Assembly: GCA_016188545.1 (NCBI GenBank) | Contig: JACPHO010000002.1 | Coordinates: 13-64,012 of the forward strand | From: Candidatus Shapirobacteria bacterium | GTDB lineage: Bacteria > Patescibacteriota > Microgenomatia > UBA12405 | Direction of reading: 5' to 3' | DNA: 64,000 nt | Part shown: one piece after another, positions 1 to 56,821 of the stretch | How the letters are laid out: every line of letters begins with the position of its first letter | How positions within the stretch are numbered: the stretch's first letter is position 1 | Program-made: the position numbers and the translations under genes | Notes under the pieces: generated by a model | What the model saw: the letters and a program-made list of their open reading frames with translations, nothing else | Databases searched by the model: none | Told to the model about the DNA's origin: nothing

Positions 1-357
1 GGAAGGCAGCTTTGCTCATCTCAAAGACAAAGTACGACTTCATAGAGGTCTAAAAACAAAGAGAAAAATGAAACTAATTAACCAAATTCTGTTGGGGAAA
101 GCACCCGAAAAGTACCATTAAGCCAAATTACAGACCTGACAGCAGGCTATTTGAAAAGTCGAATGAGATAGCTGTCAACTGGGGCTGCTGGTGTTGATGA
201 GTTTGTAGACATGACACTTTTTCCAGATGTTCAGATTTTAGAAAACCCTGAGAGCTCACCTGAAGAAAGAAGTGTAGCAATGGAACGAATTCTTACGGCT
301 GGGTTATTTGAAGAGTCTTTGTTTAAAGACTTTCCTGGACTTAGGCTAAAGTAAATG

Positions 358-9098: not shown

Positions 9099-9917
9099 CT
9101 ATGATTTTGATTTTAGATAATTTTTTGGAGATATAACCTTTGTCCCAGATTCTGATTCCAGTTTTACCCTAGCTTGACGAGCGATTTGACCACCTCGATG
9201 ACCAGCGCTGATATTTTCCGGCATTCCAGTGGCGTCAAAAGATTGGGCAATGGTTCGCGTGGAGGCTTCAGCTAAGGCAGTAAAAATTAGTTCTAATTCC
9301 GACATGTGATCACGAAGATTTTGATTTTTTAAGCCTTTAAGTTCTTTATGATTTCTAATGGTCATATCGGACCATTCCTGATGAATAATGTTGGTTAATA
9401 TGGCAAATTCCTGTTCTTTGGTTACCTCATGATTTTTCCAGTAATCGGTCAATTTATTTCGAGTCTCTTGGCCCATCATTCGTTGTTGAATCCATTTGTC
9501 ACTCCGGCCTAACTTTTGCCAGTGACTTCGGGCACGATTAACTGCCTTTTCCGGATCGCCAATTTCTTCGATTCGCTCATAACCGACTTTGGCTAACCAG
9601 CGTTTGAAGGGTTCAGCTTTGGGTGAGGGAATGGATTGGATAATTCTAAATAAACCTTCGATATTGGCACAGTCTGTTTCTCGTTTTTTGCCATCATTAG
9701 CAACTAATTTTAACCGGTGACAATTTGTCACCACTTCACTCCCTTCATCTCTAAGTCTCTGAACCAATTTATTCCAATATTTCCTTGGATCCTCACTATC
9801 TGTCAATACACCAACAACGCCAACTACCGAAAACCACCATTTATCCTTAAACCATATACGGCGAATTTCTTTTTGGTGGAAATTTATTGGTTTTGAGTTA
9901 TTTATTACTTGATTCAT
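9099..9917 (-). CDS. BRO-N (KilA-N-like) domain protein
   Basis: INFHQKEIRRIWFKDKWWFSVVGV...EGLFRII.S..PKAEPFKRWLAKV matches the Bro-N/antirepressor N-domain pattern. The long ORF (to 10139) reads through tRNA-Arg, so it is trimmed to the Met at 9917. Confidence 0.55.
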   Translation of the reverse strand: MNQVINNSKPINFHQKEIRRIWFKDKWWFSVVGVVGVLTDSEDPRKYWNKLVQRLRDEGSEVVTNCHRLKLVANDGKKRETDCANIEGLFRIIQSIPSPKAEPFKRWLAKVGYERIEEIGDPEKAVNRARSHWQKLGRSDKWIQQRMMGQETRNKLTDYWKNHEVTKEQEFAILTNIIHQEWSDMTIRNHKELKGLKNQNLRDHMSELELIFTALAEASTRTIAQSFDATGMPENISAGHRGGQIARQARVKLESESGTKVISPKNYLKSKS

Positions 9918-46948: not shown

Positions 46949-47004
46949 GAGTAGAATTAATTAGTTATTAATTCAAATTATATATGGCGGTTACTAAGAC
47001 TGGA

Positions 47005-47037
47005 GCCCGCCGTCGCCATGCTACGGCGGGTAAATCG
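47005..47037. repeat. CCCGCC...GGCGGG hairpin repeat with a gtaaatcgg tail
   Basis: cccgccgtcgccatgctacggcgggtaaatcgg. Related to the elements at 10664-10730, 56886-56927 and 60836-60896. Confidence 0.6.
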
Positions 47038-47089
47038 GTGGTGGAACACTAGTTTGCTGTGGAAAAGAGATGGTACTTAAGGCAGAATA

Positions 47090-47138
47090 GTTGTTTCGCC
47101 CGAAGGCTCATCAGGTCCGATAGATTTCGGACTACAAC
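47090..47138 (-). ncRNA. hammerhead ribozyme, type III (stems I and II closed, stem III open)
   Basis: Minus strand reads GUUGUA|GUCCGA-aaucua-UCGGAC-CUGAUGA-GCC-uucg-GGC-GAAA-CAAC. All core nucleotides are present (CUGAUGA, GAAA, U16.1-A15.1, H17=A). Stem I is 6 bp, stem II 3 bp with a UUCG loop, stem III 5 bp. Confidence 0.65.
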
Positions 47139-47336
47139 ATCTTCTAGGCTCGCGAATGGGGTCAGGCTGCTGCCTGACCCCAGAAGTTTCGCGATACCCA
47201 GAAGGGAATTCAAGGTATATATAAAGCCATACATTTATAACAACTCCGAGTCGGTTTTTTATGTCCACAAGCACTGAGGCTGGACTAGATGGGAGTCGGG
47301 AATGTTCCCCTATGGCGTTGTGGGGAATAGGATAAA

Positions 47337-48098
47337 TTACTTGGCTTCGGAAGTGCCCATGTACTTGGCAACCAAGTCAGAAGCGGAAGGTGTTTCGACT
47401 TCTGTGCCCAAAGCGCGGAGCTTGGCATCTGCACGACGGCGAGCGATCTTGAGATTCGCTTCATCTTCGTAAGTCTTTGCTTCGGCTTCTGCGTTCTGAA
47501 GAATCTCTTCAGCCTTCTGCTGATTGCGCTGACTGCCAGCTTCATCGAGATCGGCGATGATACGGTAGATTTCCTTGCCGGAAGAAGCACTGGCAGCGCG
47601 AGAACGGGCTTCTGCGAGCTTGGACTTGCGGACCTTGATCTCAGTGTCGAGGGCGTCAATGTCAATATCGAGTTTCTTGACACGAGCGTCGGCAGCCTCA
47701 TAACGAGTCCGAATTTCAGCCGAGTCTTCCTGAGCAGTCTGCATCTTTTCAACAGCTTCCTTCACGGATGCTTCGTCACCCAACTTACCGGCACGTTTTG
47801 CGGCGCGGTCCATGGTGGAGATTTCGTCATCGAAGGGTTTCAACTGTTCAAGAGCGAGATTGCGGGCGGTTTTCAGCTCAAGCAGATGGGTTTCCGATCT
47901 GGACTTGGCGAGTTCTGCCGCTGCAACTGCTGCTTCTTGACGGGCGACAGCGGAGTCGAGCTTGCGGATGACGACACTGCGCATGTGAAAAAGACGGACG
48001 CGAATGACATCAGCGAGGGCATCCGGGCTGGCAAAAAGCCAAATGACGAACAGGGCAGCGAGAATGATCTGGACGGTGGGATTCATTAGGTATTGCAT
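47337..48098 (-). CDS. membrane-anchored coiled-coil protein, PspA/IM30-like (or ATP-synthase-b-like); first gene-end of the GC-rich operon
   Basis: N-terminal hydrophobic helix, then ~220 aa of heptad-rich Ala/Glu/Arg/Lys sequence. GC content is clearly higher than the surrounding sequence. Confidence 0.45.
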   Translation of the reverse strand: MQYLMNPTVQIILAALFVIWLFASPDALADVIRVRLFHMRSVVIRKLDSAVARQEAAVAAAELAKSRSETHLLELKTARNLALEQLKPFDDEISTMDRAAKRAGKLGDEASVKEAVEKMQTAQEDSAEIRTRYEAADARVKKLDIDIDALDTEIKVRKSKLAEARSRAASASSGKEIYRIIADLDEAGSQRNQQKAEEILQNAEAEAKTYEDEANLKIARRRADAKLRALGTEVETPSASDLVAKYMGTSEAK

Positions 48099-48170
48099 TT
48101 TTTCATCTCCAAAAGTTAGTTTATTTGACGATATGACATTACGACACAGAGAACTGTTTTGTTGACCTCC

Positions 48171-48788
48171 TTATGATCCGACTCTGAGAATGATGGCAAC
48201 CGCGACGAACTTGACGACGGCAACCAAGATGGCATGCGAGTCATTGTCCTTTTCAACCATCCATTCATTGAACTTGTCGAGACTGCGGATGCCTGAAAGA
48301 TAGGCAATGATGAAGGTGATGATGTCACCAATCATCTCGCCGACGGCGCCGCGAGTCAGGACAGCAAAGATGAACATGTCGGGGGTTGAGGCATCTAACA
48401 CCGTAGCAACTTGCCAGCCGGAAAGCAAAATCCCCGCGAGAATGATCACGTGGGAATTGTTGCGTGCGGCATCGAGCTGACCACGAAGTGTAATGGCACC
48501 CCTTCGGTTCCAGGGCCAGCGAAGCAGCGGGGTATCCATGACATGTTCGAAAGAGATGAAAGTCATGATCAACACATAAGCGACGAAGACCCCACCGCGA
48601 ACCTTGAGACCAATGAGAAATCCTTTGGTCAGGAACGCGAAGAGATCATTGATGGACTGTCCGCTGGGAGCGAAAAAGTACAAACCAGCAGCGAATGCAA
48701 GCGAAAGCAACACAAACTTGAGAAGTAGGTATGCCTTGCCGGAAATTCCGTTTTGTTCCATGGTTTCTCCAAACTTATGCCATAGCAC
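48171..48788 (-). CDS. polytopic membrane protein, hypothetical (GC-rich island)
   Basis: 205 aa with four or more hydrophobic segments. Confidence 0.4.
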   Translation of the reverse strand: MLWHKFGETMEQNGISGKAYLLLKFVLLSLAFAAGLYFFAPSGQSINDLFAFLTKGFLIGLKVRGGVFVAYVLIMTFISFEHVMDTPLLRWPWNRRGAITLRGQLDAARNNSHVIILAGILLSGWQVATVLDASTPDMFIFAVLTRGAVGEMIGDIITFIIAYLSGIRSLDKFNEWMVEKDNDSHAILVAVVKFVAVAIILRVGS

Positions 48789-49554
48789 GGGTCATTTCGC
48801 CAATGAATGGGTCAATCGACTCGCCTAGATAGACTCCTTCGGTCCAGAGATAATCTGTGCCGCTGAAGTGGTTGGTGAATAAGACAGTATTCCCTTGTGG
48901 ATCTTCACCCAAAAGGTACTTGACTTTCATGGCATCTGGGGAGGGTAATGTGCCACCGCGAGTCTCGACTTCAAAGTAGCCGACGTCGACCACAGTGATA
49001 TCAATTCCCAGAGTTTTGAAAGTATAGCTTCGTGCTTCCTGATCGTATGGCGGATGGCTGAATACCTCACCGGCTTTGTTGAAATCTTCGCCTCCTTGCG
49101 GGGAAACGGAGACACGCTTCTTTAGCGTAAAGCCGTAGTAGCCTTCCGGTCGGTGAATGATCATGGTGCCGTTATCAAAAACACGGACAGACCACTCTTC
49201 ACCACGACGGGAATAAATTTGGGTATTGGGGCGGCGATTGAGCCCGTGGAAAATTCCAAACGCGGAGAGAGTCACTTCGATCTTTCGACCTGACTCGCGA
49301 AGCGCAAGTTCCACCATTTCGCCAACACGCAAATCTTCAAAACGATCATTTGCCGGAGCTTCTGCGGGCACACGCTGGTCTTTTAGATCATCACGAAGAT
49401 TTTCCAGTTCTTGTGTTGATTTTGTAGCCGAGCGTATGAATGTCTGCAGGGTATCACGGAAGTTCCGTATTCGTGCAGGATTGGTCAGCAGGAATCCAAT
49501 TCCAATGATGATCAACCCGACGACTCCAGAACCAATACAAAGATTTCCTGACAT
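48775..49554 (-). CDS. membrane-anchored hypothetical protein (GC-rich island)
   Basis: N-terminal TM helix, a short coiled coil, then a ~180 aa globular domain. Confidence 0.4.
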   Translation of the reverse strand: MSGNLCIGSGVVGLIIIGIGFLLTNPARIRNFRDTLQTFIRSATKSTQELENLRDDLKDQRVPAEAPANDRFEDLRVGEMVELALRESGRKIEVTLSAFGIFHGLNRRPNTQIYSRRGEEWSVRVFDNGTMIIHRPEGYYGFTLKKRVSVSPQGGEDFNKAGEVFSHPPYDQEARSYTFKTLGIDITVVDVGYFEVETRGGTLPSPDAMKVKYLLGEDPQGNTVLFTNHFSGTDYLWTEGVYLGESIDPFIGEMTRAMA

Positions 49555-49566
49555 ATTGTTCCTCTC

Positions 49567-50760
49567 TTAGAATCCATCACCAGAATCTTGTGAATCACTT
49601 CCTCCAAAACCATCACCAGAATCTTGTGAATCGTATCCACCGAAGCCATCGTCCGAACTACCGCAACAATCACTTCCACTGTCAGACGAACCGCTATCAC
49701 CTCCATACGACGGTGATCCAGTCGAACTGGTGTCATCATCAGGAGGATCATATGGAACGGCTGTGGGTGGAGGCTCTTGGGCGTCGTCGTAACTCTGGTT
49801 GGCGTAGCTAGTGCAATTTGAAACATGCGTACTGACGCTCGAGAAATCCTGAGCGTAGCAAGCATTGAGCGCAAGCTGTTTTTCGGTCACAGCACTGTCG
49901 TAGTTACTTTGCGCTCCGTACGAATCATAGGCACCTATTAATTCTCCACCTGCTCGGGTTATGGACGCTTGACAGCTAGCAATCTCTAGAGGAGCATTGT
50001 CAGCTTCAGATGATAGATTGTCCGCTGTTGAAGACGCGTTTTGGGCGGTAATACTTGCCTGTTGCGCTTGATCATAAACGAGCGGCTTATCCACAACTCC
50101 TTCAGGGAGGGTGGTTCGGAATGTTACTTTGGCGACATTGTCGAGTTGACTTTGCGCTTGGGTTAGATACGTCATTGCGGAGGCATAAGACAAGGTTCCT
50201 TGACCGCAGAGGCTTTTTGTTGGCATTGCTGCAACGTAGAGAGTCTCTGTATCGATCACTTTCTGAACCTCGCCAATGTACCCACGATCCACAGCCTCAG
50301 ATTTTGCTTGAAGTTGTGAATAATATGACGGTGGACCCAAAATCTGGACTATGATCTGTTCGGCATTTCTTAACTTGATGTCGGCTTCTTCCCAATAGTA
50401 GCGGGCAGAGTCACGATCATCACTATCAAGAGAGCTTTGGGCTTGGGCTTGCAACGCCTGAACAGAACCTTGAAGATTTGACCTCGCTGTGGACAGCTGA
50501 GTATCAAAACCTTCACTCCAATGCCTGGCGTACTTTGGCGACTGCTCGATAAATTCCTTTTCAGCGCTGGGTAGCTGAACGTCTAGTGAGACTCTGCGGG
50601 TTTCGAGTTCGGCGATTTTTGCCGTTAGATCCCGAAGCTCTGCAGCGTCAAAGGCGTTCATAATTAAACCTGACGCGATTAAGAACAAACAGAACAGAGC
50701 GCTGTACAACCAGACACGGTCGTCAACTAGAGGTTGACTTCGTGCTAAGTTGTTTCGCAT
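49567..50760 (-). CDS. membrane-anchored coiled-coil protein with an acidic Ser/Asp/Gly-rich repetitive C-terminus (GC-rich island)
   Basis: N-terminal TM helix. Coiled coil. C-terminal (DSQDSGDGFGG)x2, encoded by a ~36 bp tandem DNA repeat at 49571-49640. Confidence 0.4.
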   Translation of the reverse strand: MRNNLARSQPLVDDRVWLYSALFCLFLIASGLIMNAFDAAELRDLTAKIAELETRRVSLDVQLPSAEKEFIEQSPKYARHWSEGFDTQLSTARSNLQGSVQALQAQAQSSLDSDDRDSARYYWEEADIKLRNAEQIIVQILGPPSYYSQLQAKSEAVDRGYIGEVQKVIDTETLYVAAMPTKSLCGQGTLSYASAMTYLTQAQSQLDNVAKVTFRTTLPEGVVDKPLVYDQAQQASITAQNASSTADNLSSEADNAPLEIASCQASITRAGGELIGAYDSYGAQSNYDSAVTEKQLALNACYAQDFSSVSTHVSNCTSYANQSYDDAQEPPPTAVPYDPPDDDTSSTGSPSYGGDSGSSDSGSDCCGSSDDGFGGYDSQDSGDGFGGSDSQDSGDGF

Positions 50761-50860
50761 ACCTTTCCTTCCTTTCAGATTTATTTTCTTACTTACGATT
50801 TATCGGTAGCACCTCCTGATGCATGGTTTGGTTTTTTTATTTCAACTACTACAAATATTG

Positions 50861-50985
50861 CTGTAGTGCGCTCAAAGCCGAAAATGGTTTCGACACTGGG
50901 TGCACTACAGCGATGTAGACTATATATATACACTTGAATTGTTAAGGTACTGTAAATATGCAAAAAACACACGCGATTGTGTGTT
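50861..50985. promoter_or_regulatory. divergent control region with two inverted repeats (candidate operators)
   Basis: ctgtagtgc-N32-gcactacag at 50861-50910 and aacacac-gcgatt-gtgtgtt at 50966-50985. The region lies between the minus-strand GC-rich operon and the plus-strand pepF-like gene. Confidence 0.4.
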
Positions 50986-51082
50986 TATTGAATTATTTAC
51001 GTTGGCGGATTATAGGATAAGCTACGTTAAAAGTCAACATTATGGGGTATGTTTTATGCTCAAAGATAAGTTACAATAAGAC

Positions 51083-56017: not shown

Positions 56018-56821
56018 ATGAATAAAATTGCAGTGATAAGTAAGGACTTGGAGGGAATTAAGAAAATTAAAAACGATTTGGAATACTGGTCGGCAAGAGA
56101 TTTGATGAAGGTGTTGGGATATGAAAAGTGGCAAAAGTTTGAGATGGTGATTAAAAAGGCTAAAAGTGCTTGCACTGAAAGCAATCATGATGTTATGGGT
56201 CATTTTATCGGCACCGGTAAGAAGATAAGTACCGGAAAGACAGCACAAATGGAGATTCGTGATTTTTTATTAACTAGATACGCCTGTTATCTGATAGCTC
56301 AAAATGGCGATAGTCGAAAACCGGAAATTGCTAGAGCGCAAACATACTTTGCAGTGCAAACTCGAAAACAGGAAATGCAGCAAGATAGGGAGAAACTATT
56401 AAAAAGGATTGAAGCTCGAGAGAGACTAAAAGAAACGGAAAGAAAGATTGAGGGGACAGTTTACAAAAGAGGGATAAAACAACCAAGGGATTTTGCTGAA
56501 TTTAAAGATAAATATATTCGAGGATTGTATGGTGGAATGGGAATTACGACATTGAAGAATAAACGGAAAATACCAAAAGATAGAGCTTTGGCCGACTTTG
56601 ATTCTTTTTTGGAATTGAAAGCAAAGGATTTTGCTCTGGCTATGACAGATCATAATATCAAAGAGAAAAACTTGGTTGGTAAGCCAAAACTAAATCAGGA
56701 AGTTTATGAGAACAGTGTGGCGACTCGGAGAACTCTCCTAAAACGAGGAATATTGCCGGAAAAATTAAAACCGGAAGAAGATGTTGAGAAAGTAAAGGGT
56801 AAGCTAAGCTTAAAAGGCTAA
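56018..56821 (+). CDS. dinD: DNA-damage-inducible protein D homologue (Bro-N-like N-terminal domain)
   Basis: YWSARDLMKVLGY...W.KF..VI.KA..AC......HF...........DFLLTRYACYLIAQNGD..KPEIA.AQTYFAVQTR follows the E. coli DinD pattern closely. Confidence 0.7.
   Translation: MNKIAVISKDLEGIKKIKNDLEYWSARDLMKVLGYEKWQKFEMVIKKAKSACTESNHDVMGHFIGTGKKISTGKTAQMEIRDFLLTRYACYLIAQNGDSRKPEIARAQTYFAVQTRKQEMQQDREKLLKRIEARERLKETERKIEGTVYKRGIKQPRDFAEFKDKYIRGLYGGMGITTLKNKRKIPKDRALADFDSFLELKAKDFALAMTDHNIKEKNLVGKPKLNQEVYENSVATRRTLLKRGILPEKLKPEEDVEKVKGKLSLKG

Follow-up and report, generated by a model that had tools for sequence, protein, structure and literature searches.

The question raised by this locus is why one sharply bounded GC-rich block, filled by four genes for membrane-associated proteins, stands between housekeeping genes (pepF, rnhB and a SpoU methylase gene) in the genome of a Candidatus Shapirobacteria bacterium, and what these four genes might do together. 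The window, i.e. the whole stretch of DNA that was analysed, is 64 kb long. Sliding-window composition gave a GC content of 49.7% between positions 46980 and 50830, compared with 39.8% in the remaining ~60 kb; the other non-overlapping 3.85-kb windows had a mean of 39.9% (standard deviation, sd, 1.7) and a maximum of 43.7%. The reading that we favour, with restrained confidence, is that of a long-resident operon of few lineages of the candidate phyla radiation (CPR), which would build a PspA-type (bacterial ESCRT-III) membrane-maintenance machine. In what follows, W denotes the locus in the window, the L-numbers and P0010 denote the loci of its relatives, and L003 is a sibling lineage.

A first-pass annotation of this DNA had described an abrupt GC-rich block at 47285-50800. 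GC content along the window is indeed not uniform, and the block is single and sharp, but its left edge had to be moved. The rise starts at ~46980, directly beyond the start of the RNase HII gene and ~300 nt before 47285, because the ~390 nt of GC-rich 3′ untranslated region (UTR) that follow the last gene count as part of the island. In the island genes, GC is raised at all three codon positions.

A conserved four-gene module with a PspA-like member

The island is filled by four co-directional open reading frames (ORFs) on the minus strand, g1 to g4 (Table 1), which the ORF listing confirmed. Of the short or overlapping junctions proposed earlier, the short ones hold, with spacers of 12 nt between g1 and g2 and 13 nt between g2 and g3 (72 nt separate g3 from g4), whereas the overlap at 48775/48788 does not. 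That is, the ATG at 48761 is the most likely start of g3, giving 196 aa, rather than the GTG at 48788 (205 aa), which leaves the 13-nt spacer and no overlap; a GGAGA Shine-Dalgarno motif lies 5 nt upstream of this ATG, and the same start is kept in relatives. The product is polytopic, as had been stated, and shorter than the 205 aa then given. The start of g4 is the ATG at 48098 (253 aa), and its M-x-Y-L beginning is conserved. A 155-aa ORF at 47285-47752 (minus strand), overlapping g4 in another frame, was rejected as spurious, being rich in Arg, Ser, Leu and Pro as an out-of-frame reading of a GC-rich gene predicts. The hypothetical proteins HYV64_03570 to HYV64_03580 of Candidatus Shapirobacteria (CPR, Microgenomates) are 99-100% identical to g2, g3 and g4. 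The single N-terminal hydrophobic anchors in g1, g2 and g4 were recovered as first described, and the view that none of the four membrane-associated proteins has a recognisable enzyme domain is supported.

Word-indexed searches of 5.8 billion proteins returned two to four clusters per island protein, with only two for g2, and an exhaustive HMMER search with the g3 profile against 1.84 billion representatives returned 30 clusters at 50% identity, 29 of them with 179-209 aa and one with 144 aa. The g3 family is real but rare, and the module does not belong to the core genes of all relatives. All examined contigs of sufficient length with a g3 relative show the same neighbours, and all-against-all BLAST confirmed the four protein families, so that the unit is a conserved four-gene module. 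The four families occur together in at least eight lineages, all of them bacterial where the flanking genes are readable; the named carriers are Candidatus Shapirobacteria and Candidatus Gottesmanbacteria, both CPR Microgenomates. The gene order is the same in W, L003, L008, L010, L011, L015, L013/L014 and the P0010 contig, and different in L012 (Table 1). A metagenome scan with g2 found only one close locus, and a genome scan found one, L010.

The relatives of g4 are to be sought in the PspA/IM30/Vipp1/LiaH family (PF04012; solved structures are, for instance, 6zvr and 8qbr). The W protein matches PF04012 at E = 4.3e-4 (20.4 bits, profile positions 36-213 of 220), seven of the 11 g4 family members match it at E <= 0.1 (best 5.2e-7), and the distant L008 protein, with 26% identity, does so in the same register, the individual family sequences remaining below the Pfam gathering score; a precomputed PF04012 match is present on one g4 relative. 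In a search of all PDB sequences with the g4 family profile, four Vipp1/PspA sequences came out on top (E = 3.8e-8 to 6.2e-8, 160 aligned residues), Synechocystis Vipp1 was found at 8.7e-5 over 190 residues, and the best unrelated coiled coil stood at 1.5e-3. Comparison with E. coli PspA by hhalign gave E = 0.002, again in the same register. That is, residue n of the cytoplasmic part of g4 aligns with residue n-25 of Vipp1 or PspA in one consistent register over ~160-190 residues, covering helices α1 to α5. On these alignments we consider it highly probable that g4 is a divergent homologue of PspA/IM30/Vipp1, and the earlier guess of a PspA/IM30-like protein for the last gene is supported by the Pfam, PDB-profile and hhalign evidence. 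The ATP-synthase-b reading also offered for it, like that of a V-ATPase stalk, gained no support, as no such family appeared in any Pfam, NCBIfam or PDB search.

The hydrophobic stretch of g4 comprises 15-20 residues (window 11-29, Kyte-Doolittle 2.14), is followed by three Arg and is kept in all relatives examined but L012. The Arg-rich sequence after this anchor suggests an N-out, C-in orientation, which would place the PspA domain on the cytoplasmic face. Members of the PspA family bind membranes through the N-terminal amphipathic helix α0, whereas g4 has a hydrophobic anchor of its own ahead of the segment that aligns with the α0 region (Vipp1 residues 5-30). Moreover, the partners that accompany PspA-like proteins in the classical Psp (PspABC-F) and Lia systems, i.e. 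PspB, PspC, PspF, LiaI and LiaF, were not found here with Pfam and NCBIfam, and neither g1, g2 and g3 nor their relatives matched the PspB, PspC, LiaI-LiaF-TM or Toastrack domains of these databases. In the LiaI-LiaH pair of Bacillus subtilis, a membrane anchor recruits the PspA homologue, which is encoded beside small membrane proteins. The likeness to the present operon lies in a PspA-like protein kept at the membrane through a hydrophobic anchor, near genes for small membrane proteins; the difference is that in the present operon the PspA-like protein carries this anchor in its own chain, and the NCBIfam LiaH model matches g4 only at E = 0.27.

Among the partners, g3 carries a conserved VLDTP motif and two N-[DN]-S-H-A motifs at the starts of its third and fifth helices. 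AlphaFold2, with a 31-sequence alignment, gave an all-helical membrane model of high confidence (pLDDT, the predicted local distance difference test, 93.3) that has no match among solved structures, and no relative was found in Pfam, NCBIfam, PHROG, PADLOC or PDB. The transmembrane (TM) window of g2 covers residues 5-23 and is followed by three Arg, so that the positive-inside rule predicts N-out, C-in. Beyond the anchor and a short helical linker, a low-confidence AlphaFold2 model (3-sequence alignment, pLDDT 33) is beta-rich; of the TM-anchored coiled coil first proposed for g2, the anchor thus stands and the coiled coil does not. The g2 versions of L011 and L015 are without TM helix. Nine g2 family members (19-81% identity) gave no Pfam match and no PDB sequence match.

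A PspA-like protein in company of a beta-rich protein and a polytopic one recalls YjfJ-type operons, which combine PspA with an intracellular beta-rich DUF4178 protein, a YjfL/DUF350 membrane protein and a lipoprotein (Ravi et al. 2024, PMC11237479). The same set of roles in one operon could be matched one for one by g4, g2, g3 and g1, and the island would then be a highly diverged, trimmed operon of this type, with g2 DUF4178-like, g3 DUF350-like and g1 in the lipoprotein slot. One of the 31 g3 relatives does match DUF350 in Pfam, at E = 0.005, which is support at noise level, and hhalign of the g3 family with E. coli YjfL over 40 columns sets W-x3-DNDSHA on W-x4-NNNTAA, but with E = 0.15. 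Against this, DUF4178 was matched by none of the nine g2 relatives even at E <= 5 (HMMER-level sensitivity), g4 compared with YjfJ gave E = 0.31, and neither the CesT/Tir partner (YjfI, DUF2170) nor the spermidine-synthase (polyamine) gene that define YjfJ-type operons (PMC11237479) is present in the four-gene operon or its neighbours. YjfJ-type operons further differ in that PspA is TM-anchored here, that g2 and g3 have no detectable sequence relation to DUF4178 and DUF350, and that the present module is seen only in bacterial metagenome contigs and metagenome-assembled genomes (MAGs). We regard such a descent as doubtful, and the equation of g2 with DUF4178 and of g3 with two DUF350 units was rejected as the leading explanation, the hhalign comparisons with E. 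coli YjfL, YjfJ and YjfK giving E = 0.13 to 0.31.

RNA structures at the two ends of the operon

Downstream of g4 the first-pass annotation had pointed to a hairpin and a hammerhead, and both were confirmed. The hammerhead motif of W lies 199 nt downstream of the g4 stop codon, on the operon strand, and copies stand 80-215 nt downstream of g4, likewise on the operon strand, in five lineages (W, L003, L010, L011 and L015) with only ~30% protein identity, that is, in five of the seven loci with enough sequence. The Rfam model RF00008 gave 24.8 bits for the W copy and, in ascending order of score, 25.7, 29.2 and 38.8 bits for the three copies in L010, L011 and L015, whereas its gathering score is 48.5 bits, and the L003 copy, which has a long stem II, was not reported by cmscan; standard annotation would therefore miss these hammerheads. 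A covariance model built from the L010, L011 and L015 copies only recovered the W copy with 31.9 bits (E = 1.8e-7) and the L003 copy with 21.3 bits, and nothing else in 149 kb.

The cores CUGAUGAG and CGAAA are invariant in all five copies, and the cleavage triplets (GUA, GUA, UUA, UUA and CUU) all follow the NUH rule. Across the stems, in a test on only five sequences, which were placed by alignment to the model, paired cells make up 97.4%, both sides have changed in 10 of the 16 pairs, and compensatory changes occur in all three stems; the covariation score was reached by none of 500 shuffles, and slid controls were 30-54% paired. The likeness to type III hammerheads extends to the canonical CUGAUGA and GAAA cores, the three stems with stem III open and the NUH triplet. 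We have little doubt, judging from this conservation pattern, that the motif would prove a genuine structural one. Cleavage is predicted at ~47133, after the GUA where stems III and I meet, which would place the end of the operon mRNA ~4 nt beyond the long hairpin.

This hairpin, directly 5′ of the hammerhead, has a perfect 11-bp core (47157-47182) and ~27 pairs in the minimum free energy (MFE) and centroid folds, the fold of the whole 3′ UTR having z = -4.9. It is kept in L003, with changes confined to the loop and its edge, and by eye a large hairpin precedes the hammerhead in L011 and L015 too. A search for intrinsic terminators after g4 gave none, and neither a hammerhead nor another ribozyme was found downstream of this gene in L012, L013 and L008, L008 ending too early to tell.

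Prokaryotic hammerheads are described as mostly tied to phage sequences, and what they do is called an open question (PMC6155905). Most bacterial ones lie near phage-related or small non-conserved ORFs (PMC6155905), whereas those described here hold a fixed 3′ UTR position in a conserved chromosomal operon. Within the literature searched, no report of hammerheads in CPR was found. If self-cleavage sets the expression of the operon, as in the fullest form of the scheme given below, these would rank among the first hammerheads of bacteria to have a constant, conserved partner gene on the chromosome, and hence an assignable role; that five lineages keep the motif fixed at the 3′ end of a defined operon offers the concrete hypothesis that the ribozyme makes the mRNA 3′ end.

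At the other end of the operon, the palindromic operator-like sites noted upstream were found again as two inverted repeats (Table 1), the one nearer to g1 being imperfect with 27-nt arms. Both hexamers of the promoter-like site are unchanged in L003; promoter-like sites are no more numerous in the region than chance would give, and this one thus draws its weight from its conservation and position. The leader folds at -60.2 kcal/mol (z = -4.2 compared with shuffles), and the purine-rich Shine-Dalgarno sequence GAAAGGAAGGAAAGG stands directly before the g1 ATG. In the intergenic region between g1 and pepF (50761-51082), W and L003 are 85% identical at the nucleotide level, with long invariant runs, compared with 60-76% in coding regions. 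As this region is shared with the divergent pepF, the assignment as a leader is tentative. No Rfam family matched within 50761-51082. The hairpin with U-run right after the promoter-like site could be a leader attenuator.

The GC-rich composition

The first-pass annotation had taken the island to be horizontally acquired. If recent, it would be a genomic island from a GC-richer donor that has not yet drifted to host composition, and several features invite this explanation: the 10-point GC excess with its sharp borders, the GC content at third codon positions (GC3) of g3 (0.61) and g4 (0.56), 3-4 sd above the 0.395 +/- 0.056 of host minus-strand genes, the rarity and patchiness of the module across CPR, and a neighbour on the g4 side that differs between W (rnhB) and L003. 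In the latter, the stretch 46949-47089 is missing and a 199-aa gene without Pfam match follows the island instead of rnhB.

The comparison with L003, the only sibling lineage compared, points the other way. There the island stands beside the same pepF gene, and the identity of the proteins between the two lineages (g1 74.5%, g2 and g3 81% each, g4 55%) reflects a divergence about equal to that of PepF (83%). At four-fold degenerate sites the third base is shared in 32-48%, as in pepF, which is near saturation; GC at these sites in g3 and g4 is nevertheless 0.59-0.65 in W and 0.56-0.63 in L003, compared with 0.33-0.34 for pepF in both lineages. Since GC at near-saturated sites is unchanged in both lineages, the composition looks maintained, whereas a passive foreign signature should have decayed. 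Moreover, in each of the seven loci whose flanks could be used, the operon exceeds them in GC, the difference being 2 to 10 points, and its GC follows host GC from 39 to 54% (L008 was left out of this comparison, its flank measuring only 355 nt). At the island no integrase or other mobility genes and no tRNA border were found, the proteins had no phage, plasmid or IMG/VR matches, and a search for flanking att-type repeats gave only chance-level 17-mers within neighbouring genes. A recent arrival thus appears improbable, and with the same site in the sibling, persistent GC and no hallmarks of mobility, horizontal acquisition is not supported.

Part of the high GC content lies in the proteins, in which Ala, Asp, Arg, Gln and Ser are enriched and Lys, Ile and Asn are scarce, and part in a synonymous shift to C-ending codons (TTC, ATC, GTC, CTC) and CGY, away from ATA, GTA, AGA and GGG. 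Strand asymmetry in the host is very strong: the plus strand, which holds most genes, has a GC skew of +0.1 to +0.4 over most of the window, and third positions contain G at 0.25 and C at 0.13 in plus-strand genes compared with G at 0.15 and C at 0.25 in minus-strand genes. Codon tests for foreign genes must therefore stay within one strand. Codon usage as proof of foreign origin was rejected, much of the C-ending shift being common to host minus-strand genes. The GC content of the operon looks like an intrinsic, maintained property that arises from protein composition, C-ending codons (strongest in g3 and g4) and GC-rich structured UTRs, and is most simply read as a result of strong expression or codon selection rather than recent import. 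As regards method, the case warns against taking a sharp GC island for evidence of horizontal transfer, since an operon can keep such a composition stably under selection.

Possible function of the module

The remaining partner, g1, has its hydrophobic window at residues 16-34 and gave no relatives in Pfam, NCBIfam, PHROG, PADLOC or PDB. The acidic repeat tail noticed at the outset is real: it spans 62 residues with a net charge of -15 and periodic Phe, ends in DGF, and its coding sequence contains the 36-nt repeat. It is also the only part of g1 found in all eight family members, always Asp/Ser/Gly-rich with regularly spaced Phe or Trp (Tyr as well in L013), and with a D-G-[FW] end in most. 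The short g1 proteins of L011 (165 aa) and L015 (145 aa) consist of anchor, linker and tail only, and the helical stalk that precedes the tail, missing in these two, reaches up to ~550 residues in L012. Two g1 relatives have a lipobox-like Cys near the start (LTAC in L013, VTGC in L015), which suggests that the tail is extracytoplasmic.

When the parts are put together, the module is most likely a lineage-specific, Psp-like envelope-maintenance system, as far as sequence comparison can tell. Transcription would run from the near-consensus promoter through the structured leader, and g4 would be made along with three obligate partners, g1, g2 and g3. The PspA-like protein would be permanently tethered to the cytoplasmic membrane face by its own TM helix, whereas the classical proteins are recruited by an amphipathic helix or a partner. 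In g3, presumably a 5-helix integral membrane protein, the conserved polar N-D-S-H motifs are predicted at the cytoplasmic interface; g2 would be a membrane-anchored beta-rich protein on the cytoplasmic side, and g1 an extracytoplasmic, membrane-tethered stalk ending in a strongly acidic, aromatic-studded and probably disordered tail, which may report on or contact the cell envelope or outside cations. Together, g3 and g2 could couple the g1 signal to the inner PspA-like polymer, the PspA-like domain polymerising on the inner leaflet and so stabilising or remodelling the membrane. Self-cleavage of the hammerhead after the long hairpin would make an mRNA 3′ end that is hairpin-protected and carries a 2′,3′-cyclic phosphate. 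In its fullest form, i.e. a novel trans-envelope ESCRT-III/PspA machine in which the anchored PspA polymer is coupled via the g2 and g3 families to an extracellular Phe/Trp tether, g1, with hammerhead self-cleavage setting expression, the scheme is speculative and, taken as a whole, unlikely.

A number of observations count against the reading as a long-resident PspA-type operon, or against parts of it. The 20.4 bits of the W g4 protein lie under the PF04012 gathering score of 33.9, and coiled-coil composition can inflate matches of this type. For three of the four proteins no relatives are known, and the division of labour among them is conjecture. L012 and L013 are without hammerhead, so that the ribozyme is not obligatory, and the conserved leader may in part serve the divergent pepF promoter. 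With regard to composition, host minus-strand genes are C3-rich too, which makes the codon shift partly a strand effect, and the codon bias of g1 and g2 is within ~1.5 sd of host minus-strand genes, leaving only g3 and g4 as outliers. The window holds no ribosomal genes as a high-expression reference, and pyruvate kinase, the sole minus-strand gene of the host there that is plausibly well expressed, has a GC3 of only 0.43, so that high expression as the cause is unproven. Finally, old transfers among CPR lineages would explain the patchy spread just as well as loss would.

The variable stalk and universal tail of g1 could also be viewed from the outside of the cell, as parts of a surface-display or adhesion module in which the tail binds cations, the cell wall or S-layer, or a host cell, and g2 to g4 insert or anchor g1. 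CPR bacteria are commonly episymbionts, and a tail kept as the only universal part of g1, on a stalk of 0 to ~550 residues, would suit such a life. However, nothing ties PspA-family proteins to the secretion of a specific client, g2, g3 and g4 are conserved at least as well as g1, and no secretion or sortase-type signals were identified, which makes this explanation quite improbable. An anti-phage system acting by abortive infection or exclusion, a role that the first-pass annotation had thought conceivable, or a complex like the peripheral stalk of ATP synthase or V-ATPase, is extremely improbable, the matches of g4 to JetC, LmuB and SMC models (E = 0.006 to 0.09) being weak and of coiled-coil type, g1, g2 and g3 having no PADLOC match, the neighbours being housekeeping genes, and the database searches having returned no ATP-synthase family.

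PspA, Vipp1 and ESCRT-III are universal membrane-repair and remodelling polymers, whose targeting and regulation outside model bacteria are poorly known. A large comparative survey of PspA does not mention CPR (PMC11237479). What sets the operon apart from known PspA systems are its new partners, the anchor fused to the PspA-like protein and the ribozyme; its nearest known counterparts are the Psp/Lia/Vipp1 group and, as far as whole operons are concerned, the YjfJ-type neighbourhood. Read as a PspA-type operon, it would be a compact, conserved PspA variant with a self-anchored polymer, three new partners and an unusual extracellular acidic-aromatic tail, carried by hosts with minimal genomes, in which retained genes are likely to matter.

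Table 1. Features of the window locus (W), in order along the operon, and of related loci
Feature	Locus	Position	Strand	Description	Basis
Promoter-like site	W	51009-51037	-	TTGACT-17-TATAAT, ~250 nt upstream of g1	11 of 12 consensus positions
Structured, conserved 5′ leader (tentative)	W	50761-51003	-	Hairpin and U-run 50958-50993; long imperfect hairpin 50857-50914; purine-rich Shine-Dalgarno	
g1	W	49567-50760	-	397 aa; N-terminal anchor, helical Cys-containing ectodomain, Pro-rich linker, acidic Asp/Ser/Gly tail (predicted)	ORF, composition
g1 tail-coding part	W	49570-49755	-	36-nt tandem repeat, 2.2 copies, 49570-49650	Tandem Repeats Finder, direct repeat D1, composition
g2	W	48775-49554	-	259 aa; N-terminal TM helix and predicted cytoplasmic beta-rich domain of ~175 aa; undescribed family	ORF, hydrophobicity, low-confidence model
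g3	W	48171-48761	-	196 aa; ~5 TM helices; undescribed family	Conserved motifs, AlphaFold2 model
g4	W	47337-48098	-	253 aa; N-terminal TM helix and probable cytoplasmic PspA/IM30/Vipp1 (ESCRT-III superfamily) domain	Pfam, PDB profile, hhalign
Long GC-rich 3′ UTR hairpin	W	47142-47204	-	Directly 5′ of hammerhead	Inverted repeat, MFE and centroid folds
Type III hammerhead motif	W	47090-47138	-		Rfam RF00008 (sub-threshold), independent covariance model
Rest of GC-rich spacer to RNase HII start	W	46949-47089	-	GC hairpin 47006-47030; particular to this genome	Inverted repeat I2
Hammerhead copy	L003	6194-6255			
Hammerhead copy	L010	9629-9679			
Hammerhead copy	L011	9222-9272			
Hammerhead copy	L015	3783-3833			
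Module	P0010 contig (metagenome)			g1/g2/g3/g4 = 417+/258/184/255 aa	
Module	L008 (metagenome)			g1/g2/g3/g4 = 434/259/203/282 aa	
Module	L010 (Candidatus Gottesmanbacteria MAG, 567-kb contig)			g1/g2/g3/g4 = 432/256/~194/262 aa	
Module	L011 (metagenome)			g1/g2/g3/g4 = 165/186/188/181 aa	
Module	L015 (metagenome)			g1/g2/g3/g4 = 145/177/180/182 aa	
Module	L013, L014 (metagenome)			g1/g2/g3/g4 = 452/238/198/273 aa	
Module	L012 (metagenome)			g1/g2/g3/g4 = 644/266/183/209 aa; order g1-g3-g2-g4	

Some further observations concern the surroundings of the module. In the window, ~5 kb from the island, the precomputed contig annotation lists, at 56018-56821 on the plus strand, a protein of 267 aa whose Bro-N domain (PF02498) is typical of phages and viruses; its gene has ordinary host GC and no visible tie to the island. 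Beside the operon of L011, at 9315-9590 on the minus strand, lies an RNase P RNA that scores best with the archaeal Rfam model (105 bits, gathering score 84) and not with a bacterial one, on a contig that holds the bacterial genes for RNase Y, HU and RecX. In L013 (10244-11413) and L014 (5521-6690), the lineage of which is without hammerhead, a fifth gene follows g4; its product of 389 aa is highly basic and rich in Arg, Lys and Glu in the C-terminal half and has no recorded Pfam match.

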